Part shown: positions 6,481-40,301 of the stretch, in pieces | Numbering within the stretch: the first letter of the stretch is position 1 | Layout: each line of letters starts with the position of its first letter | Source: Marsupella aquatica | Lineage: Eukaryota; Plantae; Marchantiophyta | Length of the DNA: 64,000 nucleotides | Direction of reading: 5' to 3' | Assembly (NCBI GenBank): GCA_973895155.1 | Contig: OZ316897.1 | Coordinates: forward strand, 18,863,111 to 18,927,110 | The notes under the pieces: model-generated | What the model was told of the DNA's origin: nothing | Seen by the model: only the letters and a program-made list of their open reading frames with translations | The model's database searches: none | Position numbers and translations under genes: made by a program

Positions 6481-6528
6481 TACCTACGCTTCCGTTCTAA
6501 CTTCATATCTCATGGCTTAAGAAATGCC

Positions 6529-6545: not shown

Positions 6546-6549
6546 AAAA

Positions 6550-12400: not shown

Positions 12401-12680
12401 CTGACAACTCCATCTACTGAATCAAATTTGCAACAGACATATTAACACACACATCAGCTTGCAGTCTGGCCCCAGTCCTAGATCACGCATAATTTTGACA
12501 TTATGCTCTATGTTTAGATTTCGGGCCTCCTCATAAGGATTCACAGAATGTGACAACCCCTGCAATCTTCCTTTCACAGGCTGCATTCACCAACTGCACA
12601 AATGGGTAAACCATTAGTCTGATTTCATATATAGTCCATACATGTAGTCCATCTATGGACTTCACACACCTAAAACCTAT

Positions 12681-15600
12681 TCACTGCTTATGCCTGCCCT
12701 TTCTTGCAGATCCCTCTGCATCTCTGCCTCGTTTGGGACCAGTCAATGGTCCTGGATTTGCTCTAGACCTACAGGCCTTAGCCAATTCGATGTGTAATTT
12801 GGCATTGTTTTCCATTGTAGCATGGAAATCAAAGTCTATGTAATCACCTAACACCCTTGTGGACCTGGATTCTTTGTGGAGGATTGTTCTCCATGCTATC
12901 CCCTTCTCATTGGGGTGGAAGAAAACCTGCTCCACTTGCTTTGGGAAAACGTAATCCATTTTCTTGGACACACCCAGTTCTCTATGGAAATTCACCTGCC
13001 AAAGACCAGACTCGGAATACCTCATACTAGCAGAGGATTTAGGAGTCCATGATGGATCTGCCCATTTCCCTTTGAAAAGAATCACCTCTTTCCTCAAGCT
13101 GCCGTAATTCAGTACCAAGATATCTGTCAAGGCCCCTACATACTGTACAAATTCTTCTATGGTTGCACCAGACCTGTCCACTCGCTTCTCAGTGAATGTA
13201 GAAGCCATCCCAGAATCAAAAGTGCTGAAAGCACCAGAATCACAATCACTCAAACACCCCAAGGATGGAATAGTCCTCCAATGGTGCCCATAGGCTCTGC
13301 ATGCCCTATACAGTCGTGCCTTCAAAATAGGTGGTGTGGAGTATACAGATAGTAATGACCGCTCAGACTCTTTCTCAAAATTATGGGTATTGACTAATGT
13401 TTGAAACCATTCCCTGAAAGGTGGCAATTCTTGGCAGTCAGCGGGAAATTCCACTGGTTTTCTTCGATTGGCAGGCTTCCTCATCCATTCCTTCCGGAAA
13501 TCCACTCTTCGTTGGGTAACAGTCTCATTGGTAGCATCATATATCCTACATGGCAACAACAACACTGAAGACATTAGTGCATGATCCACCATGAATATAC
13601 AAACACAATGGGGCAACATAATTTAGGGTTTATGTACCTGTACCATGGAGCCACTGTCTCTTCATTCTCCAATATATAATGATGCATGGCCATCATTTCA
13701 GACCAATCCAAAGTTATCGCCTTTGCAGCCCCTTCCAAAACAATGCCTGCAATGCCAGCATCCTCCTCCAACTCCCAGGTTTATTTTCCCTCTCCCTTTG
13801 CATCAATCATGTATTTAGAAAGGAATCCCAAAGACTCATCTAATACATAGCCTTCAGCCATAGAAGCCTCTGGACGTGCCTTGTTTCGTACATAACCCTT
13901 CAATACCTTCAGGTTCCTCTCTATTGGGTACATCCATCTGCCTGTAACTGGGCCACACAAGTCTAATTCCTCCACTAGGTGAATCATTAAATGGGTCATG
14001 ACATCAAAGAAGCTTGGTGGAAAATGGATTTCCAAAATGCAGAGAGTGAATGCAACATCCATCATCAAATTCTCATACATTGAAGGGTCCCACACCTTCG
14101 TACAGATCTGGCGATAGATATTGCTCACCCCAGCTATGGCCAAGCGAACCCCTTCATCAAGTAATCCCATTGTTGCCAGAGGGAGAATCTGTTGCATGAG
14201 TTGGTGGAAATCATGTGATTTCAACCCAGAGAGTTTCTTGGATTTTGTAACACACTTCGCCAAAGAACTTGAAAAACCAGTGGGCCCTTTCAAGGTCAAT
14301 AACACCTCCAAGAACCTTGTTCTTTCCTTCTTGCTCAGGCAATATGGGGCTGGGGGCATCAACAATTTGTCATCGTTACGCTTGGGAGCTGGATTGGGTA
14401 CAAGCCATAGGTGTTGGTGCACTTGTAAGAGCTTCATGTCTTCTCTCACAGAAGGAGTGTCCTTGGTCCCAATGATAGTGTGCACAATGTTGTGTGCAAG
14501 ATTCTTCTCACAGTGCATGGGATCTAGACAATGGTTAATGAGTAGTTTCTGCAGTGGACACACAATTCAGAAATTAGGGCATTGAATACAACTTTTGGCA
14601 TCACTGGACAGTAGTTTGTGCAGTAGACACAATTCAGAAATTAGTGCATTGAATACAACTATTACAAAATCTGGGCTATAGGAAGTATATGAAGAGAATA
14701 TATTTCAAAATCATATGAAGAGATTGCAGAAATTCATTGTAGTAGTATGGAGTCTTACATTCCAATAGGGCAACTTGTACAGACCAGTAGCCCTCTTCAC
14801 TCCATGCACCTTTATGGGGCATTTCTCATCCTCAACCTTGGTTCCTCCCTTCTTCAAATATTCTGTTGTCTCGTCTCCCCACTTCTTTCTATCAGAGCTT
14901 GTCATTCTACACGGTGCAGGTCGACTCTCAATTGCACCATCAAAGTATTGTGCATTGTCTGGTCTACGAAAAAGATGCCTTGCTGCTAACCATCAACGGT
15001 GGCCACTGTACTCTAATTTCTGCAAGTGCTTAGAACCACGTGCCACACATTTTGGCCCACAGATGACACATCCTTTGTATCCAGAGTGTTGTTGTCCAGA
15101 TATTAAACCATATGCAGGGTAATCATTGATTGTCCACAATAGCACAGCCCTAAGGTTGAAGTGTTGAGACAATCCTGGGCGTGGCAATTTGTCAAAGCAG
15201 GGCACTCCTTTCTTCCACAACAGCTCCAGCTCCTCATAGAATGGGCCCAATATTATGTCCAGCTGTTCCTCTGTTACTGAATCAGGTCCTGGAATCAGCA
15301 TAGCTAGCATGACAAAGAACTTCTTGGTGGTAAGCCAAGGAGGTAAGTTGTAATTCAACAATAGTATTGGCCAGGTAGACCAAGCTGTGGAATTATTCCC
15401 AAAGGGATTCACCCCATCAAGTGCCACCCAAATTGCACATTCCTTGGTTCAGCTGCAAATTTCCGATCAATATTTGTATCCACATGCTTCCAAGCCTTTG
15501 AATCTGCTGCGTGCCGAACCATGTTGTCTGAGCTTCTATTCTCATGATGCCAAGTCATGAGTTTAGATGTACCAGCAGTGGCATACAATCTCTTCAACCT

Positions 15601-16641
15601 AGGAATTATAGGGAAATACCGCACCACCTTCCTTGCCTGTAATGAATTCCCCACTCTCTTCATCTTGGGCTGCTGACACACTGAACAGTTTTCTAACTTG
15701 GAATTCTCACCCCTAAAGAGCATGCAACCTTTCTCACAGATAGGGATTCTCTCATAATCCAAGCCAAGCTTTCTCAATAGCTGCTTTGCAGCATATAAGT
15801 TCTTGGGCAGATTATGCTCTGCAGGCATACCATGCTCCCCCATCAAAGACAACAATGCATTCACTCCTTTGTTTGAGAATCCATGGCCATGACAGATGTT
15901 CAGCAGAAGCAACATGAATGACACAACATCTATTTTGCTGCCTGGGAACAAAGGTTGCATTGCTGCATCTAAAGATAACTGTGTAGGATCAGTCTCCACA
16001 GGAGTTTCAGAGGTTTCAAGGGGGTTTACAGGATGGGCACCTTCTTCACTCTCATCATCCCCAAGTACAAAATCCAAGTCAAAACGGTCCTGATCATCTA
16101 GTTCATGTTCAGGGGATTCTTCACTGGTTCTCAGCAACGTTTCTTCTAGTAGAGCCCTAATATGTTCTTCGACATCTATAGTTGGATGTTCTTGAACATC
16201 CATAGTTGGATACTCTGGAACATCCACAGTTGGATACTCTGGAACGTCTACAAATAAATGTTCTTCAACATCTACAGTTGGTTGTTGTGCACAGGTTGCC
16301 TGCTGAAGGTTTGCTACCCTCAATGCCTCAGGGCCATGTTGTGACATGTAGTCAGCACCCCACTCTTCATCAAAAGAGTCTTGTCCCTCTCCCACCCACA
16401 CTCGACATGCAGGGTACCGACCATGTTTAATAAGGTGCAGTCTAGCAGTATTCCGATTAGTCCTATAATTCCCTTTGCAGTTCACACAAGGGTAGTACAT
16501 CTTATGGTCCCCACTCTTGTGGCAGGCCTTCTGTTCTCGAACCCACAAAGCATCATCACGATGTTGTACTCTAGCTGGATGGAAGAGCGGCAACTTTGGA
16601 GTTCTACCCACACCTAACATATTCTGTGGCAATTGTGCCAT
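12681..16641 (-). pseudogene. CACTA/En-Spm transposase (TnpD/Tnp2), element A; spliced, with frameshifts and a stop
   Basis: N-terminal YPCVNC...HLIKHG motif; RYFPIIPRLKRLY; DGVNPF...STWPILLLNYNLPPW; NDYPAYG; DPMHCEKN; GLKSHDFH; WMYPIERNLKVLKGYVRNKARPEASMAEGY; C-terminal DUF4216-like region. Confidence 0.92.
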
Positions 16642-17225
16642 GCTAGCTTGATTGAAATTGTATTCAAACTATGATTTTCAAACTGAATCAGTGTGACATG
16701 CATACAAAATTGGGCCTACCGTCACAGTTGTACAACCGATGCCAACCACAGTCCAATTGCTCAAACCCACAGAGCCCAGATTCTCAAATCCACTGTAGTG
16801 GGGCACCTTCTCCTTCTTGCATACAAATAGAGCATCACATACAGTGTCATCAGAATGATACTATGAACGTAAATCTCTGTGCCTTCATCATTTCCAGTAT
16901 TTGTTTGCCTATTAGGAATGTGAGCAGACAGGTCTAGAATAAGTAACGTTTGTGACATCAGTGACAAATTTACAAGTGAAGTTTAGACATCACACTCAAA
17001 GCACATGCATGAAAATCAGAATCCTACCCTGGAAAAGATAGTAAAGTTGATTTCTCAAAATTAATTGCCTCAATCCGCAATGCACTGTCGTAGAGTGTGT
17101 ATACATGAGGAGTTCATCAAACTGCATATAAATACTCCACATGTTTTAGCACTCTGAAAATTGTTTAAGTCCACGTGAAACCATCAAAAAGCTCTATCTC
17201 AAGTTTGTGTTCCATCCAGCCTCAA

Positions 17226-17885
17226 TCAAATCCAAGATATGTGGCTCCTAGCAGGAGTGCCTAGTGTAGGGTCAATGTCATGGTCAGGACAGTAAAACAT
17301 CCCCTTCTTGGGCTGCCCATGCGCTGAGTGATCCCAAATTGTTCGATCATGGGCAAATCCCCTCTGCTGGATAAACAACAGGCAGTCCTTGTGCCATGCC
17401 TTAGGACACCTCATGCACTGAACCAAAAAGCCATTAGCCCCATCATTGGGCCCCTGTCCACAAGTAAGACAAATATGGAGTCCACATGATGCTGTGCCAG
17501 GAACCAAACACTGCCGACAGTAAAACTGGGCACAGAGAGGGTCTGGACATTTTCTTACCTCTTCACCAATTTTTCCAGACACATGGCACTTAAAGCAAGA
17601 ATGTTCATCATTCTTGCAATCAACACAAAGCCATTCTCCAACATGGCCATCAGCCAGGGATATAGTTGGGCATAGCCATTGCTGACCCAAAGGACAGGAA
17701 ACATTCTTATGGAAATGTCGGTGGCAAGGCCCATCACAAACAATGAGATCCCCTCCCTCATCACAAATTGCACATACATGTGGACTATTTTGGTTAATCT
17801 CAATGTCTGAATATAAGGCCAATTGAGGTGCTTGAGAGGATTCACCTCTGCAACGATTCATGGCCTTCTGCTTATTGCGAGCCAT
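17226..17885 (-). CDS. EDM2-like composite PHD-finger protein (219 aa) with histone-H3-like N-terminus; transposon cargo
   Basis: VCAICDEGGDLIVCDGPCHRHFH...C..C...H.CFKC...KC...C..FY...CGLHIC..C...CMRCPKAWHKDCL...YCPDHDIDPTLGTPARSHI follows the EDM2 PHD module, including its C-terminal YCxxHxIDxxLxTPxRxH motif. ATG at 17885 is in an ACCATGG context and gives MARNKQKA. Intact and intronless. Confidence 0.85.
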   Translation of the reverse strand: MARNKQKAMNRCRGESSQAPQLALYSDIEINQNSPHVCAICDEGGDLIVCDGPCHRHFHKNVSCPLGQQWLCPTISLADGHVGEWLCVDCKNDEHSCFKCHVSGKIGEEVRKCPDPLCAQFYCRQCLVPGTASCGLHICLTCGQGPNDGANGFLVQCMRCPKAWHKDCLLFIQQRGFAHDRTIWDHSAHGQPKKGMFYCPDHDIDPTLGTPARSHISWI

Positions 17886-18506
17886 GGTCCTGCACACTCA
17901 GACCCTACATCAAATTGTGAAACAAGAAGGAATAACAGGGTGCAACATGACACAAAAGAATGAGGGTGCAGCATAAAATATGACATGTAACCACAAGCAC
18001 AACTACATTTCACTACGTCGTGACTTCCTTTCGCGTCATGTGACACGACGTTACACCCCAGTACATCTCCCTCTACGTCGTAACCCAAAATGGGTTTACC
18101 CATTTGACTTTCCTTCCCATTTTACGTCGTCTAGAGGGTCTTTAATTTAACGTATCTCCCAATAGGGCTATTTACGTCTTTTATAACGAGGCAAACATGT
18201 AGACGTCGTCCCAGACGGTGTAGCAGAATAGGGTTGGGTCGACGTATAGATGTACGTCGTTTCAGACGTGGCTATAACAGATACTATGATATGACGACGT
18301 ATAATGGATGTTGGGCGATGTTAGACATATATGACCAATGTGGGAAACAACGTTAATGGAATCCAATTGGCATGCGTAAGGTTTTTTGCGGGAGTTTTTG
18401 GGGCAAGGCTACTGGGACCTCACTGCACAGGTCATTCGTGATTTCAGATGTCCTACGGGTACGATAGTGCACAGAATTTGCAGAGTGAGATTGAAAGTCT
18501 TCAGCT

Positions 18507-19067
18507 ATGGTACGTAAGATATTCAAGGATGTCCACTGTTGTTTTCTTCCGCTAGGTGAAGAAGACAAGACTGTTCATGGCTTTTTTTGTCGTGGAGGTG
18601 TGATAGACAAGTTTTGTAACTCAAAGACGGAATACTTGCTTGCCAATACCTGGAAACAAGTCACAGAGCACTTCAGTGACTATCCTGGATTGATCGAGCA
18701 CTTTGCAGAGTCCGTGCATTTCATCTCGATTTGTTGGGTACAGTACTCCATTCTGGGCAATAAGGAGTTGGACCCAGAAGAGTTTTTGCTGCATCCAGGG
18801 GATGATTTGATGCTGGACGATACGCCCAAGGATGATGATGGTGAGGCTTGTCCACCAAAGTTGGCTAAATGTCAGTTGTCACCGACTAAACTTGATATTG
18901 TGATGTATGACTACAAGGAAAGCTGTGCAGCTGAGATTGAGGCTGAAAGGCTGAAGGTTGGTGAAGCAGTGGTCCGCAAGAAATGGAACGCCAGCAATAG
19001 GCGTGATTTGTACAAAAAGAGGAAGGCAGATGAGGAGTACTACTGGTCTGGTGAAGGGACCCCTTAA
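18507..19067 (+). CDS. Unknown cargo ORF of element B (186 aa), convergent with the transposase
   Basis: Open frame with protein-like composition, flanked on both sides by ACGT-motif arrays; no recognisable domain. Confidence 0.5.
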   Translation: MVRKIFKDVHCCFLPLGEEDKTVHGFFCRGGVIDKFCNSKTEYLLANTWKQVTEHFSDYPGLIEHFAESVHFISICWVQYSILGNKELDPEEFLLHPGDDLMLDDTPKDDDGEACPPKLAKCQLSPTKLDIVMYDYKESCAAEIEAERLKVGEAVVRKKWNASNRRDLYKKRKADEEYYWSGEGTP

Positions 19068-19703
19068 GCTACACTAGTGCCAAGGTCAGCTGGAGACGGA
19101 GGAGCATCATTTGCCTAGGATTGGAATCAGTTTAGACTGGAGTCAGACTCATGCCTTATGTGCACGTTGTATGTTTCTGAGCGCATGAATAAAAAGTCCC
19201 TCCCAGGCAATTTATATTTGTAATGTGTTTTGTGAGTAACGTCGATTGAAACTTTGAACGTCATCAGAAGAATGGTTAAATAAACGTTTACGTCGTTTAA
19301 GACACGGTAACACAATCAACGTCGTCTAATACGAGGTAAACCAAGGACGTACTATGTATACGTCGTTTGTACAACGTATCTACGACGTAACTATAGATTA
19401 ACGTCTTCATTATGGGTATAAGCGACCTTTGATTGTCTAATGACGTTGAGGTTGACGTTAATAAGTTCGAAGTGTCAATTGGCCTACGTGATAAGGGTTT
19501 ACGTGCTAGGACCCATTGAAGGTTGTTCGAAGGCCGAGGTTTAATGCTTTTTAATGTGTTCTTAGCTATAAAGTGAGGAAAGACGAAACTTTGCACAACT
19601 CTCCCTCCAATTTGCCAGATCTCAAACGTCGAAACATATGTCAATATATATGTGGAAGGTGGGCATAGCCAATACATATAAATGGAGGGTGTGAAGGATA
19701 GTG

Positions 19704-22700
19704 TCAGTCCGCATCGTCTGCAAGGACTGATGCCATGAAGCCCTTCCTTCGCCGAGGGAAAATTGGTATGACAATGGACCATCCTCTCATGGTCTGCATC
19801 GGAACCATAATGCACTGATCCACCTGGCTAGGAAAAACTATGGTGTCACTAAACTCAGTCCCTGTGGGTGCAACTCGGGTTGTGTCCACGCGATAAAAAC
19901 CACACTCATCCGCAACCATCGTAGCTCTCGCTGGGGGTGACATGATCGACTTGTGCCACCTCACCTCTAGTACAGTGGTGACAAATGACCCAAAATGAAC
20001 ATCTAAAATGTCCACAACTGTCCCACAATAAGGAACCTCTACATCATCTACATCAGTCATCATGAAGATTCCAGAGTTACAAGTACTCTTCTTCATATGG
20101 TCTGTCCTCCAAGTCCGAAAGTGATGCCCTGACTCATACATGTGTGTATGAGTCGTGGCCCGCATCCCTGGCCCTCTAATGATGTTTTGTACATCAATGG
20201 GAATGGATGTAGACCCATGCACAGCCAAGAGCCTCTCCATGCGCTCCAAAGCCCAGACATGAAATGATGCAATGCCACGACCTGCTTGCGCAACTCCCAC
20301 TTGAAGCTCCAACCATGCACTGCCAAATACGTTGTCACAAGATTGTTAGAGATTTGCAGCCTTCTCAAATCCAATTCACAATCGATTAAAATTTTAGAGT
20401 ACCATACCTATACATCTCCCTCCAATCAGACATCTCCGGTCGATTCCCCAACACATAATTATGGATCTGTCGACGAAATATGTCATCATCCAATGATCGC
20501 TTCTTGGCCGCACCCATCAATCGCAGCCCACCATTGTCATCATCTTGTGCCTCTTCCCAAGTTGTGGGAGCTTTGCTATCCAAACTCCCTATCACCCCCC
20601 GAAATAGAAAAGACACTCTGACATAATGAACCCTGTTGCCATACGTCCCTCAGGTCGAGCGGGTTGACGCACCCAACCCTTGAGCACCTTCATATATCGC
20701 TCAACCCAATACATCCATCGGGCATGGACTGGGCCTGCAATGGCAACTTCATCCACCAGGTGACATAGCAAATGCATTTGCATGTCAAACAGTGCTGGGG
20801 GGAACACTCGCTCCAAATTGCACATCACTTGCGCTGTCCTCTCCCTCATCAAAGGAATCTCTGACTCCTTGATCTCCTTGGCACATACCCACCTATGAGG
20901 CACTCAAAAACATGACAGGAATAAATATCACCGCCCAATCTGAAAGTGGGCTAAGATGGTTACCAATTCAATGCCTACTAACATTCCCTCTACTAAGATT
21001 CCTACAAACGTCGCTCTGCAGGACGTTCCTGAAGAGGGGTGACTTATACGACCTTGAATACGTCGTATGTGGAGTCTTATTTTTACATTACCTAGTTATA
21101 GATGACGTAAAGTATTAAGAGACTACGTATCCTCTCTAGAATGTCGTTTGAGACACCATAAATTTATGGTCCCATAACACCACAAAATCCACGAGTAAGA
21201 TATTTCCAACCTGAAAATGGAGCACAACTCGTACACTGTGAGTTGGAGTAGGTGGCGCTCTCTAGAATCATCGCAACAATGCAACACTGCAGGGAGCACA
21301 TGCTGTATCAGCTTGTGATAATCGTGGGACTTCAACCCTATCGGGGGGATGTACTCATTCCTCGTTGTGCACCCACGGAATCCAGCTCTGTAATGGCTCG
21401 GGAACTTCATCTCACAAATCATCCCATTCACATCCTTCAGAATGTCTCGAGGCAAAATCCAAGGGGCTGGTGGTGTCACCCCAGTACGTGCTGTCCAATA
21501 ATTAAAGAGAATCAACTTGTTAGGGTTTGGGGTTTCAGGCAAATCCGGGCAACTTCTTACAAATTAAGGGTTGATCGATGTTTTATCATGTACCTGATAT
21601 CCAACAGCTCTTCACAACTCCTACATTCTTTGCATCCACACGAACTCCACGAGTATCATTCTCACCATACATGTGCTTCACCAAATTCTTTGCGACATTC
21701 ACTTCAATGTGCATGGGGTCCAGTAGCCACCGGATCTTGAGCATCTGCTTGCACAACATGGTAATCAAGTGAAAAACTCTAGCATTATGAGAGTTGATGA
21801 AAAAATCTATACACAACATTTGATAGGTGTATTGTACCTACCCTCCAATAAGGCAAGTCCCACAATGCTGAGCGTCAGTTTACTCCACAATCTTTGGGTT
21901 TCAGCAGCTTAGCCTCCACCATCTCTGCCATTTGAATTTGAGCTTCTGCTGAAGGCGCATTAGGACATGGTCTTAACTCAATCTGTGCCCAATGTCTTGT
22001 GTTACATCGCATGGGGTCATCCATTGACAATCTCATCCTGCTGCCCTCATATGTGGTTTTGTGCAATAGTACTGAGTACCTCCCATGCAACTCAGGGCCA
22101 CATGAAGGGCAACCTGAGTACCCAGCCACCTTCAAGCCTGATATTGTGCCCATGCCTGCCAAAGAAACCCCATCATATTCCCACAATAAAAGAAGCCAAA
22201 TGAAGACATAAAGTCATTTAGCACAATATAATCACATTTTGTAAGGTTTTTGAATTACCGGGCCCATCAGTGGTGCAATGGGTGATCATGACTCTCATGT
22301 TGAATGTCCTCCCATTGTCCGGTGCACGGGTGACATCTGTTGTTGGAGCCCCAATTTCCCACAAGTCATGTAGCTCTTCATAAGCTGGGGCCAAGCAAAC
22401 ATCTGGATTCTTGCAAGCCTCGGGACCGGGAATGATAGCTAGGAGGAGAACATGACCTTTTTTCATCGCCAACCATGGAGGGATGTTCTGATTTATCAAA
22501 AGAACTGGCCAAATGGACTTTGGTTTCCGTCGCTGCTTGTATGGGTTTACCCCATCTATGGCCAACCCCAACCAAACATTCCGTGGCTCTGCAGCAAAAT
22601 CTGGCCATGTGGCATCAATGTGCTTCCATGCTGGACTATCTTGGTGATACCGCATTATCCCTGTTGGGGATTTGGTCTCGGCATGCCAAGTCTGTAGGGA

Positions 22701-25606
22701 GGATAGGTGTCTTCGCCGGTATAGATGCTGCAATCGGGGTGTGATTGGAAAATACCTCAGTACCTGAATGTACAACAACCATGAGGCGGCATTTCGTCGT
22801 TAACATCACAAATATGTTGACGATAACTACGTTCCAAAAATCTTTACGATGTTCAATACGACATATTACTTCTGTATTGAACATAACTACGTATCCTAAA
22901 AGTGAATGACGTTATAGTTTCATGTTGAGCAGATCTATGTTCTCTAAACTTTTACGTTGCAAAAAGCAACGTTGGACTAAAAAACGTCGTATGGAAAGAC
23001 GTAAAAATCACAAGGGAGATGTTAGGGTTATTTACTTCTAGTTGAAAGACGTACTACTCACGAGGGCAACGTTAAGGGACACAAAATCCCGTAAAGTAGT
23101 CAAAAATTACTAAAATACAGATGTGGTACAGAGAGGATGTCATTACCTTCTCAGCAATCTTGTCTCCAATGGTATCAGGACGATACCGTGGAAGGCCACA
23201 TCGCTCAATTGGGCAATGGGTGAGGTCCAAGTACGGTCCTCTATACAAGATGCACCCATGAGGGCACATATGTATAGTCTCTAACGCCAGTCCGATAGAT
23301 GATAACAACTTCTTAGCCTCCCTCACACATCCTGGAAGGTTGTTAGGTTGAGGCAAGAGTTTGTTGTGGAACAACGCAAAGAGTGCATCTGTATGGACAT
23401 CTGATCCATTGAAAACCCCCTGTAAATTCAACATCAAGAGTGTGGCTCCCAACCTGCATTTGCATTGAAAACCACAAAGAAACCAGCTTTTTAATTAGTT
23501 TAAGGCATGCCATTGAGGATGGTCCAATTGGGGACTTAGGGTTTATGCACACCCTTAAGCAACATTACAGTAGAAAAACTATAATAGCACCTCAGAGAAA
23601 TGTACCGTGAGGTCGGGGAACCCTGGAATAGCGGAGTCCTGGATTCAGTTTCCAATTGGTCCCAATCATCTTCGTCTAGTTCCATGACAGGAGGGTCACC
23701 CTCAGGTACATGAGGTCCAAAGTGGATGTCCACAAGGTGCGCAAAAGCATCCTCTTCAAGAATAGGTGCATCCATATCATCCTCTACATCTTCATCAAAA
23801 TCGTCATCATGTGCATCATGGTACTCATTCACATCCTCGTCCACATCCTCGTCCTCATGCACATGATCACTCTCAACATCTTCGTCGTCAGAAAAAGATA
23901 ATGTGGCTCGCATGTGGAACGAACGGGCTGACTCCGTCATCATCGATGGATGAGGTGTAGGTGTTATATTTGGACCATCCTATGCAAGACGTCAATATTA
24001 GATAAGGTCATCCCCAAATTAGACAATGTGTTCCCAATAGTGCATGAGGTAATGAAGGTCAAAGAATCCAATATAAGTCTCACTCTGAGTAATGAATAAG
24101 TGATCAATAACATATATAATCTTCAATGCCAATCATAGTCTACAAATATCTCATCCCCTGCTCGAATGGTGCGGGTGGCATGTGTCAGGATGTAGTGACT
24201 GCATCCCAAGGGCAAACGAGGGTGACTCTGGTCATGGTACTCATGCCACTCAGCGTTGGGGCGGAACCCCAAACGCCGACACCCCACTGTGCTATTGATG
24301 TAACCCGCCAAGTTTCCAGTACGAGGGGGGTAACCATCCATCTGAGTATACCTAGGGTCCAACTTAAGTGACATGCCATACCGACCAAAGGTTGGGCATT
24401 GGCGAGACAAGATACGCCATCTATGGGCCGAATACTTTGGCCCATAAAATGGAATCAACTCGGGCAGGTCCTCAGGTGCACAACCTTCCGGCACCACAAT
24501 ATCCACGAGTGCAAATAATCCAAGACCTACGTCGTCTCCCAATGTGGATGGGAGGAGGACCCATGGCCTATCCCAAACTACAATAGGCTCCCGAACAAGC
24601 AGGACCATAGGGAGGCCAAACTGGGTTGGGAATGAGTCCTTTATGATGTCCAAGGCTCTCCCTCTTAACTCTCTTGGTGCTCGGGAAAAAGAGGCATCAA
24701 GAAAAGGACAGTGTGGCGGCACCGTCCTAGGGGTACGAGACGTAATGGACCGAGGTCTAGTGGTGACCTCTACTCCCCTCTCAATAGGGTGACTCCGAAT
24801 GACCCTCCTCCTCCTATCAAAAACACGGTCTATTGCCCTTAATGTGGCATCGAGTGCTGATGGGGGAACTAGTGCTGTGAGCGCGCGACGTGCAACCTGT
24901 CTCATGTGGTCCAAGGGCGGAGAGACCACACACAAAATCTGTTTCACATGTGAACAAGAGAACTTCAGAAATCAGGGAAAAAACCATTTCAACTAAACAC
25001 TCAAGAAACTCAAGAAACCCAAACATGTTATATTCAAAAATAAGGACTTAATGAATTGAATAGTGTCAATAAAGGTTTATGAATTACCTGATGTGTCGGG
25101 GGTACGTAACGGCCGTGGAGGCCTAAATGGCTAAGGACAGTGGTCCTCTCGTGGGAGACGACGCCCTTGCATCTACTACATGGGCAGGGCATCTTTCGGA
25201 CTGGGCCAATCCCCTGAAGGGCAGCCATGGCCTCTCCAAACCTATCCTCATCCTCCGGCATGGGTGATCGGTGTCGGGGTGTGTGGTCATCAGAGGGAGA
25301 CCTGGACCGGCGGTGGCGGTGGGACTGTCGATGGGACCTCCTATGCCTTCGTCGCTCCCGATGTCGATGATCCCTAGATCGGTACTCCCTATCTGAAGAC
25401 TGATCCCAACTCCTCTCAGACGAATGGTGCCTGCTCCTATCAGATGATAAGTCCCTCCTCCTCTCGGCTGAGTGGTATCTCGACCTCGCAGGTGAGTGCT
25501 CCCTCCTCCTCTCCCTCCCCCTATCATGAGAGCGGTACCTGTCTCGGTGATGTGCACCTCCATCATAGCGATCATCAGATGACCACTCCGATGAGCACGA
25601 GGCCAT
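19704..25606 (-). pseudogene. Multi-exon CACTA transposase of element B, with at least one premature stop
   Basis: Exon 1 (25606-25088) has PCPCSRC...HLGLHG. Later exons start at 23979, ~23453, ~22763 and onward and carry RYFPITPRLQHLY, DGVNPY, DPMHIEVNV, GLKSHDYH and WMYWVERYMKVLKGWVRQPARPEG. TGA at 21877-21875. Confidence 0.9.
24123..25606 (-). CDS. SET-domain (lysine methyltransferase-like) protein; predicted splice 25606-25088 + 24938-24123, about 444 aa
   Basis: SET motifs VGLGLFALVDI, FYG, GNLAGYINS...PNAEW and ATRTIRAGDEIFVDY. Phase-0 donor CAG|GTAATT at 25088 joins phase-0 acceptor AAACAG|ATT at 24938. Confidence 0.8.
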
Positions 25607-26124
25607 GGCCTGCAATAGTACACACACATATACACGCAAACTTGCAAACTCAGCCTTGGAAATGGAACGTCGGGACCACTATAGTACCACAATATTTACG
25701 TCAAGTAAAACGAAGTACTTTCACTTTACGTCGCCGAGAACACAATACACGACGTATTTCTTAAACCCTACGTCATGTACCGTACCCCACACGACGTTAC
25801 AGTAAACCCTACCTTTTAACGGTGTACAGAACAACGTTTAAATGAAAACGTCGTCTAGCACAACGTATTACTAATCGATCAATTAGGGCATCGTCATGAA
25901 AAACGATGTAAATAGACAGAGAACGGCGGAAACACATTGTTGCAAACTCTGCCGCATTCTATTCGGAAAATACCGGGACATAGTGTCGAATGTGAGTCAT
26001 TCGACCATTCCGCACACACCTCACCCCACATCTAGTGTTCTATTCTGTTCGTGGCTCTAGTGAAGCTCTAGTGAAGCTCTAATCTTTGTGAAGGTCATCT
26101 ACATTTGCTCCAAGTCTCGCCTCA

Positions 26125-28131
26125 ATGTCACGTCCAGCTTATCTGCCCCTCAGTATCAACTTTGATGCTGTGAAAGTTTCCATGGAAGACCCAGAGGAGG
26201 TGGAGAAGGTTCGAACAGCTTTGCGGTCAGCACATTCACTGATTGATGCTTTCAATCAGAGTTGGCAATTCATGGGAGGAACTGGGACGAAGGAGTCACG
26301 ATTTTTGGAATACCTTCAGAACATAGAAGAGAACGCTCCAGCATCCGACGTTGAGCCCGACATTCAAGCACCAGAGTTCTTGCGCGACCTTCCGGGGGCA
26401 TCACTTGATCCTCTTGCTTCCTTCCCGCCCTTGATGGACTCAGTCTGGGACTATCCCTCGTTCTCTGGGATGGAGTCGGATTCACAACCACCCTGTGTTA
26501 CTCCCATCAAGAGCCAAGTGAGGATTCAAAGATATGAGCCTGATGATTCAAGTACAGAGTTGCGGACACACAGAAGGCGACGTCGTTCCCGTTCTTTGAG
26601 TAGCAATAGTAGCATTGAGAGGAGACAAAAAAAAGGGGAAGGGAAAGGAGCGCAGAGAAAGAGACAGCCGCAGCACAACAAGAGAAAAAGGGTTGAACGA
26701 GATTCGAGGGTGGACAGAGATAGGAGAGGTCGAAGGTCACATCGACATTCACATTCAATCGGAGGAGGTCATCGGCGAGCTTCTCCTAACCGAACCGTTG
26801 CTACTCTTGCCAGCAAAGAACAACTGCCGGTCATCAGCCTGGCTGCTTTTGATGCGAAGCCAGAGGTGCTTGATGAGAAGGCGCTAACGAATCGAGTGCA
26901 GGTCTGCTGTACGAAACACTGCCCTGGGTGGACGACTTGGAAGGACCTCGTGCACAATACAAAGAAGTTTCAAGTACTCCTCAATGACATACAGGCCGGA
27001 TTCAAGAATGGCAGAGAGATTGATTTTCGACACATCAGGCAGAAGATTGTGAGTTTCCTTGCTGACAGAAGATTCAGGTGGAGAAGCAAGGTCCGAGCAA
27101 TGAAATGCGAGAAGACAGGGCAGTACCGTAAGCCTGAAGGGATGGCCGAGTCGGACTTCAACTTGATCGTGTCTGAACTTGAAGCACCCCCAGACACCCT
27201 AGTAGGAAAATGAGTGCACATGGGTGACAAAGCCACTGCAGCTCGAAAGAATAGCGGACGCCTTCTAGTAACCAATTTCTGGGGGCAAGGAGGATGGCGA
27301 GGGTTCCTCGCAACCTACGTAAGTCTCGGACCCAACTTCCACATTTTCATTTTGCTGCTCCGGTGTAAACCATAGTGTAACGTCGAGATTTTGAAATTAC
27401 GTCGCCTGATTCATTCATAACGTCGTCCATAACAACGTTAACTTTGATTTGTAACTTCATCTTAGACGTACCTTAGGAAGAACGTCGTCCTTGAGACATT
27501 ACATGTACCGCTTTAGTGAAAATGTCGTTAGAGCGACGTTAACTAGATATGCAACGCATGGAACGACGTTAGCACCGATGCTGAGAGGGTTGAATACGTG
27601 CTTAGGAACGACGTTCTTTTGCTTTCTCGCAGAAACGCAAGTTTGGTGTCGATGCCGAGCCGTCGGAGGAGGAGCGGCTGTACTCGAAACGGTATGGCCC
27701 GGCAGCGCTATGGGCCAAGTTGGCCTCAGTCCCGGAGGATCACCGGGTAAGAGCTAAAGTGATTGCTAGGTTGTAGTTGACTTTAGGCCTACTCTGTGAC
27801 ATTAACTGACCAGAATGCTATCATGCAGGTGGAGGATTGGACTCCTCCGGAGGGCTTGGTTGCACGGGCCATCCCTGAGGATCACTTGCCAGCCAGGGTA
27901 CCGCCCGAGGAGGGTTTGCAGGAGGAGGCTCACGTAGATTGCGGGCAGGAGGAGGGAGAGACTCATGGGGGGCGTACTAGTGGCCAAGGCCGGAGGGAGA
28001 GAGAGAGAGCCAAGGGAGGGAGAGAGAGGGAGATAGGGAGAGGTCAGATAGACAGAGGGGGAGGGAGAGGGAGAGGAGGAGGAGGGATGACACTAGGCGA
28101 CCTCCACACAGTAAGGGGAGTAGGCCAGTGA
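26125..28131 (+). pseudogene. TnpA/Ptta-like second gene of element B, divergent from the transposase
   Basis: WTTWKDL...KFQVLLNDIQAGF...FLADRRFRWR...KPEGM...FNLIV pattern and NFWGQGGW resemble En/Spm ORF2 proteins. In-frame TGA at 27211; further exons at ~27633-27746 and from ~27829. Confidence 0.6.
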
Positions 28132-30519
28132 CTACTCATAGGGCTGCAACACAAGCAGATACGTTGTCCCCCAGTACCACTAGCTTAGAGGAGGATGACT
28201 CCAGGTACGAGTTGCGCCCGAGAGGCGTACAACCCACTTCTACAAGCAGGTCTGGACGTGATACCAGGCGGACTGAGCGTGACTAGGGTATAGCCTATTT
28301 TACTTGCCCGACTTCATCCTCCATTTTGTACATATTTGGCCCATAACAATATTATCTAATACGACACTTTTCGCGGATTACAACGTCTATACCATATGCA
28401 TATTGAATGTGTATCCCTAAACCCCAACTGCCTACCCAAATAATGCTCACCCCATTGTAACCCTAGCTTAAGTGTGTTTATAACCTCCAATAAGGTTGTA
28501 TGGCAGGGTCCGACATAATATACGGGGCGTCGTTCATTCATAAAGTTACCAAGCTTCTCACAAGGTATGACCCAGACGTAGTCTTCCACTTTCACACAAC
28601 GTCGTTCATGACATCGATATATGATAACAACGTCTTATCACACCACGTAAACCAATGAACGAATTCACATTACATCAAACGGAACGGTGTCCCAGACATC
28701 GTTACAAACACTGACGTTGTCTTATACGAGGGAGTCAACGTCGTCAATCACGACGTTTTGTTTGTATTAACGTCAGTTCGTGCGACATTCAATGGACATG
28801 GAAATCTACATTAGCCCAGTACTCTAACGATGCATAGGACGTTGTGCACACAAAGAACCACGTTGGCGGTGTGGCAATGTGCGTTGTGTGAGACGACGTA
28901 AGAAACCACATCAATATAGACGTCCGGAACGTTGCCAATTTTACCTTGGGGATTCCGTGTTTCCATTTAGAGTTTCATACGTCGAGATTAGCCTGTTGTG
29001 AGGCAACGTTAAGTTAAGTCAAAATGTAGTTGTGAAGGGAGCAGCATAAACCAATGCTTTATGGATGGCAAAGCACTAGGACTGAGCAACGCAAATAACC
29101 TTGGCCTATGATTGGAAGCAATCACAAATATTGCAACCTGTATGCCTTTGCCTTCTGTCCAGCAGTGCTCACTCACCCTGCCTTTTTTAAATCTGTAAGG
29201 GCAACACAAAACAAATAGCAATTGAGTTTCAGCAAAGCATTGGTTCTCAAGTTTTAAAATGGACAGACTTGTTTCATTGTCTGCCTTGTGCGCAGCAGGC
29301 TAAGACCGATCAGGGCAAATAATTTATATATTCAAGTAGTGAGAGCTACAAAATTTGCTGGGACAGTTTTCTAGTTCTGGATCCTGCTGCGCTTTATATA
29401 CAGCAGCAACCTGAATTCAATTTTTATAGACCATTAGATTGGGGTGTTTCTTTTCACCACGGCTATTACTTCAATGAAATCACTATTGTTTCATGTTTAC
29501 TTCAATAGTCTCGTGGCAATCGAAGGGTTCGGAACTTAACATAGCAGACACAAAAAATGTATGCTAAGCAGGAGGAGAAACAGGGCAATAGAGCAACATA
29601 GCAAGAAGGCAGGGGTAGCATGGCAAAAGGAAAGAGTAAATTGAAACTATGAAACATAGCCAGATTGAAGGGGAAGAAGAGCACAACCTCTTGCAGCTCC
29701 CGTTTCTCCTCCTGTAGCTCCCGATGTAACCTCCCGCAGCTCCCGCAGCACACTGACAAACGGTGAGACCTCCTGCAGCTCTTCCCGCAGATCCTGCCTG
29801 TTGTGACCTCTTGAAGCTCCACCAATGTGACCTCCCGCACCTCCACCACTTCTCTGTAGCTTAGTTATCCCCAATCATAGCTTGCAGCTCCTTCCCAATG
29901 AGCCCTAAACCACTCCTCGCAGCCGAGCTCGCAGCTTATGACCCGCAGGTTATCACCAATCACAGCTTGTCGCCCTTCGCTGAGGTAGCCTCCCGCAGCT
30001 CCTTTGTAATGTATTGTCCCAAGTCTCCTCCTCACCCACTGGTTATCATCGATTGCACGTCGTCGCCCTTTGCAGCTTTCTGAGACATATAGCTCCAACA
30101 TTAACGCCAAATGCTCCGCAATGTTGCGTGACACTGCAACAATGGATTGGAGCTCTTCCGTGGTAGTAGCTCCCAAGTCCTACCGGCTCACCCTAAGCTT
30201 TCCTACTCCCCTGACCGCGCACAGCACCCTGATACAGTTTTTGGGAAGAAACGGAGTGCGCACTCCACAAAGCTGTCTCAACTCGCAACTGAACTCAAAT
30301 GCGCCCCGCACTCCATGCACATTGCCCACCGCCACATTCCTTTGATGAAAACGCGCACCTCAACCACAAAAACCCTACATTTCACAACTTGGGCTCGACT
30401 CGATATTTGCCGTTGTGCACCTCCAATGCAGATTTGCCGACCACTTTTGTTCCGAGGGCCTACTACAAGAACGCGGGAATTGGAGCACGATGTTGATTGT
30501 ATGATCCAGGGTGTGATCT

Positions 30520-33500
30520 TGTGATGCCTAGACAGGAATCACTCGGCCAGTTAAGTGGGTAAAGCAGAAATGCACCCTGGAAACACCTTAGTATAGGGAC
30601 AAAACAAGGAAAATATAAACAATTAGGGGCGACTATGGAACCCGGGCCGAGGCCGGAGGTAAGGACGCTGGGGGTGAAAACTCGATTAGGGTTAGGGCGC
30701 GCTAAGCGTCGGTGGCTAGGAAGGATCAACGGGAGGAAGGACAGGAAGAGGAGAGGGATAAGGAGCGCTTGTAGGAGATGGTGGCTCATTTGCGAGCACG
30801 AACTAGGCAGACGACTACGGGAGGCCAACTACTGTCAGCTGCTTAGGCAAGCACTCGGGGAGAGAGTAGATACCGACGATTGATCTAAGGAGGGTATGAG
30901 CAACGTCAATCAAGCAGCACATTTCTGGGGATGCCTGTTCGAACGGGCAAGTGAGTACATCAAGACTTACAAGGACGAGGAATAAAAAAGGGCAGCTCGA
31001 GAACGGCAGGAGCTTGCTTGATTGTGGGAGCTGCAGAAGACGGCTTTCTTAGGAGGTGAACTCATCAAGGACGAGTTCTTGTGGACTCCTACTTCCAATC
31101 AGCTCGACGATCTTCTGTTTTGCAAAGACAGCATCATCGGCATTCGAGAGGCCATCAAGAACTGCAACGACATACACTGGGAATTGAAGGGTAGCACGGA
31201 AAGGTGGACCCAGGCAACGGTGCTAGGAGAAACCTCCACGGCAGCAGAGATGAAGAGGAAGGGAGCTGTCAACCATGAAGCCACCCCGGCAAAAAGAACG
31301 AGGTCGGCGGCACCAAAGAAGCCAGCCGAGCAGCAGAGCAGAAGGCAGGGAGAAGCCAAAGTAGAGGAGGTCGATCCCATTAAAGCCATTCCAACTAGGG
31401 ATGACACCTGGAAAGGTTGGGCGGCAACCCTACCGGTGGAGGTGCAACTACATTTTGCATGGGAGGAGGATGCATGCTTTACGGCCATGCAGACCAAGAA
31501 GTACCAAGGCTTCATGGCCGGATCCGGCTTAGAGGCCTTTGTAAGATTACCATGGCTGAAGCCGGAAGTACCGGATTCAGACCTATTAGAATTCGTGGGG
31601 TCATGGGAACCCGAGACCAATTGCACGAGGATATATGGGAAGGATTTCTATCTTACTCCCAAGGTGATTGCCGAAGTGTTTGGCTTGCCGATAGGCAATA
31701 AGACCAAAGTTGATACCAGGAAGACCTTGCCTGACAAGGAGTTCCGGTCGTTCCCCGGGCCATCAACGAAGAATGGCTTCTTCCGGAACACCTACACCAA
31801 CCCGCACATTGGAGAGATGATCGACTTCTTGCGGGTGACCATGCACTGTAACTTGCCGAGGGCAGAGATCGGCAAGGCACAGGTCTATCTGGCAGAGAGG
31901 CCACACCCAAGCCGGGACTACAACGGGTACCTCCTCAACCAATTGAAGAAGATCTTAAAGGAGGAGCAGCAGGTAATCGGCATGGGGAGCGTGTCGCGGC
32001 TTGGCTATCACATGCCGCTATTGTGCCGGTATGCCAGAGGTCAGACCTTTGCCCCAGTACTTCCCCTGCAGGTAAGGGCACCTGAGGAAGCTCCAGCACC
32101 GAGGCCGGTAGCAGAGAAGCCTCAATCACCTGTTAGCCCTACGATCGAGCAGGTGTTTAGGCCAAGGACAGAGGACTTGCCGATGCAGCAACCAGGCATG
32201 CAGAATCTGCTGAAACTACTGGAGAAAGAAAAGAGATCGGCATCTGCAACGACAACGGCAACGGCAACAATGCAGAACATTGCTCCAGAGGTAGGCCTAC
32301 ACCGGCTTACAAGGGAAAACCCCTTTACTGGAGACAAGGAAAGAATCAGGCCAGAATCCAAGCGGGGTGTTCGAATGTACGTGGGAGTCTCAAGCTCTGA
32401 ATCTGAGGCAGAATTTCCTGAAGCTCCTACGGATGAAGAGGAGAGGGAGAAGCCGGAAGTCCAAGAAGTAGAGGAGGCAGTGGAGGACTGCAGCCATGAT
32501 AACTTCGGCTATGGGTCGGACCATCACGTTCCAGGAGTAAGGACCTGTGGCCGGTTCATCCCCACACTTCCAAGAGTAGTACGAGGGGACCCCAACCAAC
32601 AGAGTAGCCCTGAGTCTCCCCCACCAGATGTTGCTCCCCCGAGCTTTGACGACATAAAACAGACGGCGCAGGAATTTCAGGAGCGAATCAGGCAGGAAGA
32701 AGAGGCAGCCCTGGCTAGAGAAAAGGATTTGCCAGGAGAAGATTGGCCGGAGGACATCAAGCGGCTAGCCAAAAAAGGAAGCAAACCTCTAGCCACGATT
32801 GAAGAGATCCGCAAGACGGCTTGGGAGCAGAGGCCGCGGTGGATGATGCCGATGACTTCTACTTCCTCCACCTATGCTAAAGACAGAGCCATGGAGTACG
32901 GGGAGATGTGTGGAGAACTGGCGCTCAGCATATTTGGGGAGGAGTTGGAGCAGGGACCCTTTTTCCAGAGGGAGATGTTGGAGAAGCGCCAATTAGAAGA
33001 AGCGGTGGCCTTGGAAAGAAGCAAGAAGGACGAGGTCATCCGTCGGCTTAGGGAAAGGGAAGCCAAAATCAAGGACCTAAGGGTGGCCAAGAAAGCCCAA
33101 GATGAGCTGCGGATTAAGCGGCATGAGCTAAATATCATGCAGGGCCAGTTGGATACCGCACAATCTGATAATCGGATGATCGAGAATCTACTGACGCGGA
33201 CCCAAGGAGAGTTGGCCGATACGATCAAAGAGAGGGAGAAGTGGAAGCGAGAGCTGAGGAATGCAGAGGAGGCCCACATAACAGCCAACAGCCGGGCCAT
33301 GGCGGAGACCCAAAGAAAGGAATGGGCGTTGAAGGGGGAGCTCAAGAAAATCCGCGGAGCCCTTGAGCAGAAGGAGGCCGAGTTAGGGAAATCCTATCAA
33401 GGGATTATGGCGCTGCAGCAGGAGCTTGCGTCCCTGACGGCCAGCTTCAAGGCCGACCTAAGGGAGAAGGATGAGATGCTCGATCAAACTTACGCAAAGA

Positions 33501-35209
33501 TGAACCAGATGGAGTCTGTCATCATTGCAGAACTCGACAAGGAGCTACGAGCAACCCGGGAGGAGAGGGCTACCTTGAAGAAAGAACTGGAGGAGGCCCA
33601 TAGGGAATGGGAGGAAGCCCAAAAGGAACTAGAAGAGGCGCGCAAGGACCTGGATGAGACCCAGGAGGAGTTGGAGGAAATCACGAGGAAGATGGAGAAC
33701 CTACAGCGGCGGGCCGACAACCAAACAGAGCGGCTGAAGAAACAAGCCGCAGTATTTAAGTGCTTGTCTTCATCAGGCCCAACTCCAATTGGGGCAACCA
33801 AGTTACCAGGAGTGGTACTGGCCGAAGAACAAGCCGCGCCACCTGCACCAGTGCCGGAAGTAAGTGGGAAGGGGAAGGGACCAGCTGCCGAACCAGAAAA
33901 GAAGAAGAAGCGGAAACCTTCAGGGTCAAGGAGTAATACGACTCCACAGGCCGTGGTGACCAAGGAGGTAGACCCAGCACCAACCTCCGGCATGAACACG
34001 GCAATATATCCCGCTATCATCAAAGGTGGGGAAGGTGCGGCCCAAGCCGAACTACTCAGTAATGAGGCTGGTATCCCAGATCTGCCTCTTGAGCAGGCCG
34101 GGGAGGCTGTAGCCGAGGCTGAGGCCGTAGCCGAGAATGATTCCCGAGCCGATGCCGATGGTGGACCCAGTCAGGCCGATGGAAAGTTGACTCAGTCAAG
34201 GGCAGGTAATCTGTCAGAAAACGAACCTACGACAGTGGCTGAGGAGGAAGCGTTGGGGGCGTCCATTGAGGATCCACCACCGGTGTCGTGACGGTGCAAG
34301 GGCGCCGTTCCTTTTAGGAAAGGCGGACGTGGAGGGAGGAGGCGTGAGTGGGCAGGGCGAGCGCTGATTTCCAAGTTTAGGATTAGGATCAGGACCAGGA
34401 GCGGCCCTGACACTTAGCTTAGTGGGATTGCGGTTCCACTAGTAGGAGCAACACTTGTGCTCCTGCCTTGCTGTACATAGGTAGATCTAGGCAAGTAGAT
34501 TACTGTTAGGTAGATTAGGCTTACGCTGCAAAGAATTAGACGGATCCACTACCAGGATAAGTACCTGGGCAGCGGGGAGCTCAGGGCCTCTTCTTTAGCA
34601 AGTTTTTAGTTTGCACCAGCCGGGCTGGGATCAAGTAGTAAGAGAAGCTCTCGGTTAGTCATACAGTGACCCTTGTGTATATTCATGTTTCCTCATGCCT
34701 AAGAGCTGAATAGAGTTGGCCTCACGGCTTAGTTCGCAGAGCTTGTGTATGAGATGTACTGTTTGTATGGCAAGTGCATGGTATGACTCAGTCAGAAGGA
34801 GTCATTTTGCTATTTGTGTGTCGCATTAACTTGTGTGAAGAGTGCCCACATCAACTAATAGAGGAAGGAAAGTAAGCAGGGGAGTGAGAGTTGGATGTGT
34901 CGAGCTAAGAGAGGTCTTAGCGGCTTAACCAAGCCTATTGGGGATCATTCCGGCGGCGGAATCCAAACATACCTAACAAGACGGAGGGGAAGACAAGGGA
35001 AGGCCTAGATTAGGCCGACTACGTATCTCATGACCCGATGAAGGATCTGTCCAGTATATGTGTGTAAATGTTAATAGTAGTAGTAGAAGAAGGTTAGTAG
35101 CGTCCCATGCCGCTAAGCCACGGAAACGGCCTCACCAAGCGCGAAACCTGCAGGAATCGGCTTGAGTTGGGGGGTTGCTTGGGTTTAGGGAGCCATGGGA
35201 CGCACCACA
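30520..35209 (+). mobile_element. Solo LTR (4690 bp) of the gypsy family
   Basis: TGTGATGCC...GCACCACA flanked by 5-bp TSD GATCT (30515-30519 and 35210-35214); no gag/pol inside. Confidence 0.95.
30635..34291 (+). pseudogene. LTR-encoded ~1218-aa accessory ORF (three point stops near the 5' end; 1089 aa still open)
   Basis: ATG 30635 is in frame with 31022..34291. Stops at 30881, ~30983 and ~31019 are sense codons (CGA, TCA, CGA) in the other LTR. Contains LLEFVGSW...IYGKDFYLTPKVIAEVFGLP and a long heptad coiled coil. Confidence 0.82.
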
Positions 35210-38900: not shown

Positions 38901-39400
38901 ATGAGGGACCACACAAATGACCACAAGTCTCGTCACTTGACTGATATGACATACCATATGACAGTTTAATGACTCTACTTGTAGTCATTGGCATTATGAC
39001 ACAAATTTGTCTAAAAATGACCCAATAAAGATTACACTACATCCTTCATTGCCCCATCACTATTCATTTGCAAAATAGAATATTCCCCATCCAAACAAAG
39101 GCACAAACATGACACAATTACAACAAAGGATGACAACCTTCCATTGGTATTGCCCTACTTCTTGGAGAGACAAAAAAGTTTCATTTGCCTTTGGATACGA
39201 TAGTATGCGCGCATCTATATATGGTGACAGTTCTGGAAAATCACTCCAAAGGTGTATGACTTGGGAGTGATTTCCCCAAAGCTAGGTGCATCATGCCTAA
39301 AGTAAATGCAAGACATGTGTTCAAATTGCTAATCCGCAACTAGTGGGAGGACAATGATGAGTATTGTGTCCCGCACTTAGTGGAAGGGTTATCAACCATA
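36000..39400. repeat. ATGAC/GTCAT-rich tandem array, ~570-bp unit, each unit with a 36-bp near-palindrome
   Basis: AAATCACTCCAAAGTYRTAYGACTTGGGAGTGATTT at about 36571, 36944, 37518, 38082, 38659 and 39238. Confidence 0.85.
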
Positions 39401-39479
39401 TCAATGACTCTACAATTATGACCGGTGTCTGGAATGACTATTGAGTATTTTAATTTTCATATCTCTTGGGTTCTTTAAT

Positions 39480-40288: not shown

Positions 40289-40301
40289 TTTTCTTCTAGT
40301 G
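40289..40301 (-). mobile_element. Canonical CACTA terminal inverted repeat (CACTAGAAGAAAA); right end of a large CACTA element
   Basis: TTTTCTTCTAGTG ends the ATGAC-rich region and truncates the adjacent transposase ORF. ATA (40302-40304) is the candidate TSD; the partner TIR is not in the window. Confidence 0.8.

Follow-up and report, generated by a model that had tools for sequence, protein, structure and literature searches.

In Arabidopsis, the TnpA-Spm1 protein of a CACTA (En/Spm) transposon is described as binding clustered CCVTCGCAAA motifs and as causing CG demethylation, via ROS1/DML2/DML3, at the element ends only; the same preprint describes nine Spm families, each with its own motif, and gives the Spm-type TnpA a helix-turn-helix (HTH) domain that is tri-helical and arranged in tandem (bioRxiv 10.64898/2026.08.24.746577). 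TnpA-Spm3 is in turn predicted to homodimerise (PMC13547354). The subject of the present analysis is Element B, a CACTA (En/Spm) transposon of about 11 kb in the liverwort Marsupella aquatica, located at 17998-29034 of a 64,000-nucleotide window (the whole stretch of DNA analysed, from contig OZ316897.1; all coordinates are window positions). It encodes a transposase, a SET-domain protein, a small open reading frame (ORF) starting at 18507, and a further gene starting at 26125. Seven non-coding clusters of the motif ACGTCGT/ACGACGT in Element B are, by analogy with Spm and with a probability of roughly 0.6, sites of the element's own TnpA-like protein, the product of the 26125 gene, acting in the active phase of the element.

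The motif is strongly concentrated within the element. Element B contains 26 of the 28 ACGTCGT/ACGACGT matches in the window, the other 53 kb holding two, and 39 of the 44 ACGTCG matches. ACGTCGT is its top 7-mer, against backgrounds of 0.69±0.87 (maximum 4) in 300 dinucleotide shuffles and 2.16±1.37 (maximum 7) in 300 trinucleotide shuffles of the element, and the ACGT core occurs 93 times where 32 are expected. On the predicted gene model, in which exons and introns were assigned from GT-AG boundaries, frame and homology, ACGTCG occurs 34 times in 4319 non-coding bp and five times in 6718 coding bp (binomial p 7e-10), and ACGTCGT 24 times and twice, respectively (p 2e-8). A sequence-only reading of this DNA had pointed to a dense motif in the non-coding parts of the element. 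The motif positions that it listed all hold, its coordinates marking the W base before ACGTCGT, and non-coding DNA of the element exceeds coding and flanking DNA in ACGTCG, as ACGTCGT exceeds the shuffled background. The sharp halt that it saw at the terminal inverted repeats (TIRs) is likewise evident, with CpG counts per 100 bp rising from 0 to 8 at 18000 and falling from 2 to 0 at 29100.

The seven clusters occupy both subtermini, a convergent 3' gap and a divergent promoter between genes, and three introns, two of them in the transposase gene and one the first of the 26125 gene (dyads are the paired sites described below; O/E is the observed/expected ratio):

18014-18349, no strand: motif cluster 1, at the left subterminus and upstream of ORF 18507; 7 ACGTCGT, 2 dyads (18173, 18202)
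19238-19454, no strand: motif cluster 2, in the gap where ORF 18507 and the transposase gene converge with their 3' ends; 4 ACGTCGT, 1 dyad (19318)
20893-21210, minus strand: long intron of the transposase gene, holding motif cluster 3 (21007-21104); 2 ACGTCG, 2 dyads (21007, 21047)
22764-23146, minus strand: long intron of the transposase gene, holding motif cluster 4 (22828-23068); 1 ACGTCGT, 10 WACGTY, 2 dyads (22953, 22983)
25666-25862, no strand: motif cluster 5, in the promoter region (25607-26124) from which transposase/SET and the TnpA-like gene diverge; 3 ACGTCGT, 3 dyads (25697, 25818, 25847)
27319-27632, plus strand: the TnpA-like gene's first intron, holding motif cluster 6 (27379-27610); 4 ACGTCGT, 7 ACGTCG, 2 dyads (27419, 27595); CpG O/E 1.65
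28575-29005, no strand: motif cluster 7, right subterminus; 4 ACGTCGT, 5 dyads

The sites are thus not confined to the termini: five of the seven clusters are internal, at 1.2-5.2 kb from the nearer end, and no base of Element B lies farther than 1299 bp from a cluster. The cluster of the 22764-23146 intron consists mainly of motif variants. A motif at every promoter and intron, as had been proposed, is too broad a description, since clusters occur in only three of the 11 predicted introns and one cluster lies between convergent 3' ends. These three introns (314-383 bp) are the only ones longer than 300 bp; the eight short introns (78-152 bp), among them the two beside the SET exon, contain no ACGTCG. 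A tandem-repeat origin of the clusters was rejected, as none of the seven is overlapped by a Tandem Repeats Finder array scoring at least 40.

ACGTCGT is the half-site of a spaced dyad, WACGTCGT-N5-ACGACGTW, whose outer CpGs lie 15 bp apart. A half-site weight matrix identifies 17 inverted pairs at the 5-bp spacer, at least one in each of the seven clusters; 500 shuffles with the half-sites preserved give 2.5±1.7 such pairs (maximum 9; P 0.002, and likewise when compared with the best offset). The dyad at 28737 in cluster 7 is perfect: AACGTCGT-caatc-ACGACGTT. A sequence-blind dyad detector is marginal at loose settings (23 against null means of 13.5-13.8 and maxima of 24-26) and separates clearly at stricter ones (11 against 3.5, and 7 against 0.6).

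Related transposons preserve this architecture with different letters. A profile of the SET domain recovered 20 loci from metagenome contigs, and at 11 of the 20 transposase exons follow SET, as in Element B. The loci L005, L006, L008 and L010 are copies of one family (85-95% identical), hereafter the L006 family, whose SET is 34% identical to that of Element B; L006 and L008 extend to a CACTA terminus. This family carries the motif TCGCAAA (16 occurrences in 4801 bp against 0.49 expected in L006, 12 against 0.45 in L008) in the subterminus, in the divergent promoter and in an intron of the divergent TnpA-like gene. The sites pair as TTTGCGA-N11-TCGCAAA (12 pairs in L006, L008 and L010, none in L005), with CpGs 15 bp apart, as are the outer CpGs of the dyad of Element B. 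At the same place as in Element B, the divergent gene is homologous to the conserved domain of the 26125 protein (independent E-values of 4e-10 in L005, 4e-9 in L008, 1e-8 in L006 and 1e-4 in L010; best E 12 in the reversed control), and the TnpA-like gene's own intron holds a cluster in both families. In L001, whose SET is closer to that of Element B (46%), the half-sites are variants and the 5-bp spacer is retained. Judged from sequence, this combination of shared geometry and different letters fits a homologous binder whose specificity shifts by family. The L006 half-site TCGCAAA is, moreover, identical to the last seven bases of CCVTCGCAAA. The proposal that the TnpA-like product is the likeliest reader of the motif is thereby strengthened: the layout, a homolog of the protein and the geometry of the dyad all recur in a distant family, whose half-site is the core of a TnpA site defined by chromatin immunoprecipitation (ChIP). 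In both families, arm complementarity within dyads slightly exceeds that of swapped arms (100 against 93.8, P 0.025; 32 against 24.6, P 0.01).

If the clusters are sites of the 26125 protein, this protein would bind the dyad, presumably as a dimer. Bound protein would help to assemble the ends for transposition and would locally lift CG methylation, allowing the genes of the element to be transcribed. Demethylation would proceed through host ROS1-type glycosylases, as in Arabidopsis; Marchantia, a liverwort, has the ROS1 homolog MpROS1a (PMC5784723). The effect would be conditional: clusters would be built and kept in an active lineage, and in a silent copy methylation would reach the motif CpGs, which would then decay as the rest do. 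The internal clusters would extend to a promoter, a 3' gap and gene bodies what the known TnpA does only at ends. On this analogy, the workings of Element B resemble those of the Spm-TnpA system most, while its sites are spread as in VANDAL; the element belongs to CACTA and not to VANDAL/VANC, and is a putative member of the TnpA system. From the earlier idea of an element-wide code read by a TnpA-like product, what survives is a family-specific non-coding motif with the TnpA-like protein as its likeliest reader; coverage of all introns does not.

The clusters are also distinguished by their CpG content. Their CpG O/E is 1.27 in Element B, against 0.56 in exons, 0.19 in short introns and 0.22 in element A, the CACTA transposon that surrounds Element B; in L006 it is again 1.27, against 0.24 in exons and 0.13 in motif-free introns. 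Masking of the half-sites lowers the cluster value to 0.65 or 0.53, still above that of motif-free introns (0.11-0.19). The contrast between the two elements is partly element-wide, because the exons of Element B are also CpG-richer than those of element A (0.56 against 0.16-0.27).

Several observations weigh against assigning the clusters to the 26125 protein. Inserted copies of the L006 family have lost CpGs from clusters (30 of 133 cells) at the same rate as from exons (31 of 146, p 0.88), including eight of 46 motif CpGs, and in Element B four of 11 CG-to-TG differences fall in clusters, three of them on motif CpGs (p 0.76, among the 40 of 1831 rows listed). Half-sites lie mostly outside 5-bp dyads and are unpaired or weakly paired, and the excess complementarity within dyads fits a hairpin or local-copy origin. 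The L006 family counts as one observation, because its four loci are 85-95% identical copies, and its seven-base match to the Arabidopsis motif may be convergence. Among related transposase-core loci, L003, L012 and L013 lack an intronic TCGCAAA cluster, so that clusters inside the transposase gene have so far been seen in Element B only. The 26125 protein and seven homologs match no TnpA-related family in Pfam, and its conserved domain (26818-27210) has no Foldseek match and no clear solved fold in VIA (best Z 5.6). Furthermore, TnpA-like proteins are described as apparently restricted to flowering plants (bioRxiv 10.64898/2026.08.24.746577; PMC13547354).

Standing protection of the clusters from methylation was rejected, as cluster CpGs decay like exon CpGs. 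The survival of motif CpGs beside a CpG-poor element A, a point of the sequence-only reading, is therefore half upheld: the contrast is real (1.27 against 0.22), with no sign of a lasting shield. Since CpG loss in inserted copies is equally fast in clusters and in exons, the CpG richness stems from the active founder element, in which selection, or demethylation while it was active, maintained it. This weakens the argument from CpG survival. Conditional anti-silencing remains uncontradicted, since VANDAL copies are described as being re-silenced at the same non-coding regions once their activator is gone (PMC10398659).

Four described systems resemble Element B most closely. With Spm1/KAKUSEI it shares the CACTA class, an accessory gene apart from the transposase and dense clusters of a family-specific, CG-containing motif, whereas in the published account binding and hypomethylation are limited to the termini and no SET gene is described; the words 'palindrom' and 'dimer' do not occur in that preprint without its supplements, and no dyad is mentioned there (bioRxiv 10.64898/2026.08.24.746577). 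Set against the tandem tri-helical HTH of the Spm-type TnpA, the model of the 26125 domain is all-helical. Maize En/Spm with its TNPA and soybean Tgmt* resemble Element B in their 13-bp TIRs, 3-bp duplication and family-diverging motif, which is reiterated in both orientations and able to form palindromes; in the source, however, the repeats are described as subterminal only, TNPA arises by alternative splicing of the transposase unit, and the CACAA start of Element B differs (PMC2613891). VANDAL/VANC, as described, resembles Element B in placement: a short family-specific motif in introns, intergenic and terminal non-coding DNA, with coding DNA spared. VANDALs belong, however, to the Mutator superfamily, and their motif lacks CG and lies in tandem repeats, unlike the spaced dyads of Element B, which show no tandem overlap (PMC5735166, PMC10398659). 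No VANC-like protein was detected in Element B, in that the 18507 and 26125 products have no Pfam match; no direct comparison with VANC was made. The VANDAL analogy of the earlier reading thus applies to motif placement and fails for the tandem-repeat build and the protein. Fungal EnSpm/Plavaka elements are CACTA-clade and carry chromatin-modifying cargo proposed to evade silencing, but that cargo is a TET/JBP dioxygenase rather than SET (Element B) or PHD fingers (element A), and motif clusters are not part of the published description (PMC12730594). Searches of open-access literature, at listing level, brought up no account of clusters, dyads or TnpA-like genes of this kind in the CACTA elements of bryophytes.

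Other explanations account for part of these data. An element protein might bind the dyads solely to control transposition or splicing, as a transpososome scaffold or an Spm-like suppressor block, with no anti-silencing and with CpG richness reflecting selection on a CG-containing site. This is the classical role of TnpA at subterminal repeats, and palindromes are described in soybean Tgmt* (PMC2613891); the absence of lasting CpG protection and the drop in CpG O/E after masking agree with it. It is nevertheless unlikely, since the five internal clusters would be of no use for end-synapsis and masked clusters still exceed motif-free introns in CpG. That the binder is another product of the element, namely the transposase, the 18507 protein or the SET protein, appears less likely again. 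Transposase and SET are also common to the L006 family, and transposases can act as sequence-specific activators, as described for AtMu1, but in plant Spm the DNA-binding domain is split from the transposase (both bioRxiv 10.64898/2026.08.24.746577). The SET ORF has no predicted DNA-binding part and the 18507 protein looks BRCT-like, which is a lead only; a cluster inside the TnpA-like gene's own intron in both families also argues against this explanation. Recruitment of the SET product by the motif, part of the original proposal, fares no better: nothing ties SET to the motif, and the introns that flank it are motif-free.

ACGT is the core bound by bZIP-type factors, and its excess in Element B would be consistent with host transcription factor sites captured to drive element expression. 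Methylation-sensitive host factors are indeed described as being used by transposable elements (PMC13547354). The near absence of ACGTCGT from the other 53 kb makes this origin very unlikely, as does the L006 family, in which the same geometry and places occur without an ACGT core and would not be explained by one host factor. The least probable account treats the dyads as structural or mutational by-products, small hairpins or template-switch inverted copies with no protein reader. The mild complementarity excess in both families favors it, yet the predicted hairpins are weak (-0.7 to -7.9 kcal/mol), and dyad flanks and spacers show no pairing excess. It would also have to produce one consensus in seven separate clusters with unrelated flanks, spare coding DNA and short introns, and arrive at a common CpG spacing in both families. 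Sites of the 26125 protein remain the favored explanation. A bolder extension, for which the odds are clearly unfavorable, would see an old bryophyte CACTA code for element-wide anti-silencing, in which a TnpA-like dimer reads a dyad with fixed 15-bp CpG spacing and family-varying letters, sites are tiled across introns and promoter in VANDAL-like fashion, and the element's own SET protein rewrites histone marks; TnpA regulation would then predate flowering plants.

The identity of Element B as a CACTA transposon rests on its ends, its insertion site and its transposase. The ends are of the CAC..GTG type, starting with CACAA rather than CACTA:

17995-17997, no strand: target-site duplication AAG, left copy (right copy at 29035-29037), from sequence and the empty-site joint
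17998-18010, plus strand: left TIR, CACAACTACATTT, 13 bp, perfect
29022-29034, minus strand: right TIR

Contigs from the empty site join 17994 to 29035 with three shared letters in four of four runs, and near-identical copies of Element B are present on contigs of 500-1960 bp with 0-12 differences. On the minus strand of the element, Pfam detects Transposase_21 (E 3.6e-37) and DUF4218 (E 1.3e-29), as well as Transpos_assoc (E 0.001, below cut-off). The copy in the window carries two in-frame stops and a frameshift (27211, 21877 and 20594), which are absent from most contig depth. The genes are as follows:

18507-19067, plus strand: ORF 18507, 186 aa, no motif inside
19704-25606, minus strand: CACTA (TnpD-type) transposase gene, nine predicted exons with Transpos_assoc, Transposase_21 and DUF4218 (Pfam, exon frames)
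24123-24938, minus strand: SET-domain ORF within the first transposase intron (Pfam SET, 23.8 bits, cut-off 22.4)
26125-28286, plus strand: TnpA-like gene, three predicted exons (26125-27318, 27633-27746, from 27829), from homologs and an AlphaFold2 (AF2) model

ORF 18507 has a single homolog (74%) and no match in Pfam or, by sequence, in the PDB; its N-terminal half (18507-18800) is BRCT-like as a lead only (Atlas BRCT clusters, 0.88, all Atlas leads being below 0.9), and its AF2 model is unusable (pLDDT 38.6). In this copy, the transposase gene is interrupted by an early stop (21875-21877) and by a frameshift near 20594, and other copies lack both. The SET ORF would be in frame with exon 1 if spliced, both possible splices being in frame in Element B. 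It has 19 homologous matches, two of them named and from Calypogeia fissa, a leafy liverwort, and GxG, INS..PN and E..DY, which we take to be the SET motifs, are kept across the 20 aligned sequences; the SET profile has no sequence match in the PDB. SET also separates a first, zinc-motif exon from the core of the transposase in L001, L003, L004, L007, L008, L010, L012-L015 and L017-L019, a conserved arrangement of these CACTA elements.

The label 'TnpA-like' for the 26125 protein rests on position, conservation across families and analogy. The protein has a basic low-complexity N-terminal part followed by a helical domain (26818-27210), modeled by AF2 (pLDDT 79.8) as five helices, one of them long and basic (70-94); the VIA rows for this domain include BEN, Myb and homeodomain folds at Z 4.0-4.7 among unrelated folds. 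An in-frame stop at 27211-27213 interrupts this copy, while other copies have C at 27211, and the homolog P0028 is continuous across all three exons. A word-based search with the whole ORF found no homolog among 4352 candidates, and a HMMER search with the conserved domain found 10, of which seven were aligned (P0022, P0029 and P0030, with short or repeat-like matches, were omitted). An hhalign comparison with the L005 frame gave a probability of 0.8% on truncated input. A GA-rich repeat occupies 27985-28089 in exon 3; two frames are open beyond it, leaving the C-terminus uncertain.

Element A (11200-17997 and 29035-29500), within which Element B sits, encodes an ORF with NSD-type PHD fingers (17229-17897, minus strand, Pfam above cut-off) upstream of its transposase, where Element B has SET. 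Its CpG O/E of 0.22 is accompanied by a CHG value near 1.0, and the motif was rejected for element A, with no dyads at any spacer. Ty3/gypsy-type gag-pol sequences on the minus strand, with a long extra coiled-coil ORF, occupy 314-11202 and 30520-35209; the segments 6550-11202 and 30520-35209 are inverted copies, 91% alike, on either side of element A. Nested tandem arrays with units of about 575, 373, 83 and 43 bp, AAATGAC-rich, lie next to two long ORFs without a Pfam match at 36100-40250 and 40296-42149 (minus strand); these may be another element with its own motif. A 65-bp tandem repeat of 5.7 copies at 44109-44490 contains the palindrome GCCTCGCCC..GGGGCGAGGC. A 633-aa ORF at 45633-47534 (plus strand) weakly matches N6_N4_Mtase (E 0.0046, below cut-off) and adjoins a NIF-phosphatase-like ORF (47971-48366, plus strand); together they are possibly mobile-element cargo with a prokaryote-type DNA methylase. 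An intronless amino-acid transporter gene (Aa_trans) lies at 54818-56311, followed by a degenerate partial copy (56497-57023).

Two papers of 2026 describe TnpA-like regulators as limited to flowering plants and their action as limited to element ends. If the 26125 protein reads the sites described here, such a system exists in bryophytes and reaches gene bodies as VANC does, and it would follow a simple, testable rule, in which a pair of CpGs is spaced by 15 bp and the flanks are specific to the family. The two families, in which homologous proteins accompany different dyads, would provide a basis for cross-specificity tests of how anti-silencing codes diverge, with a programmable, sequence-specific demethylation tool as a possible outcome. 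The function of a transposon-borne SET gene also becomes testable, and the bryophyte code, if true, would pair DNA targeting with an element-encoded methyltransferase.

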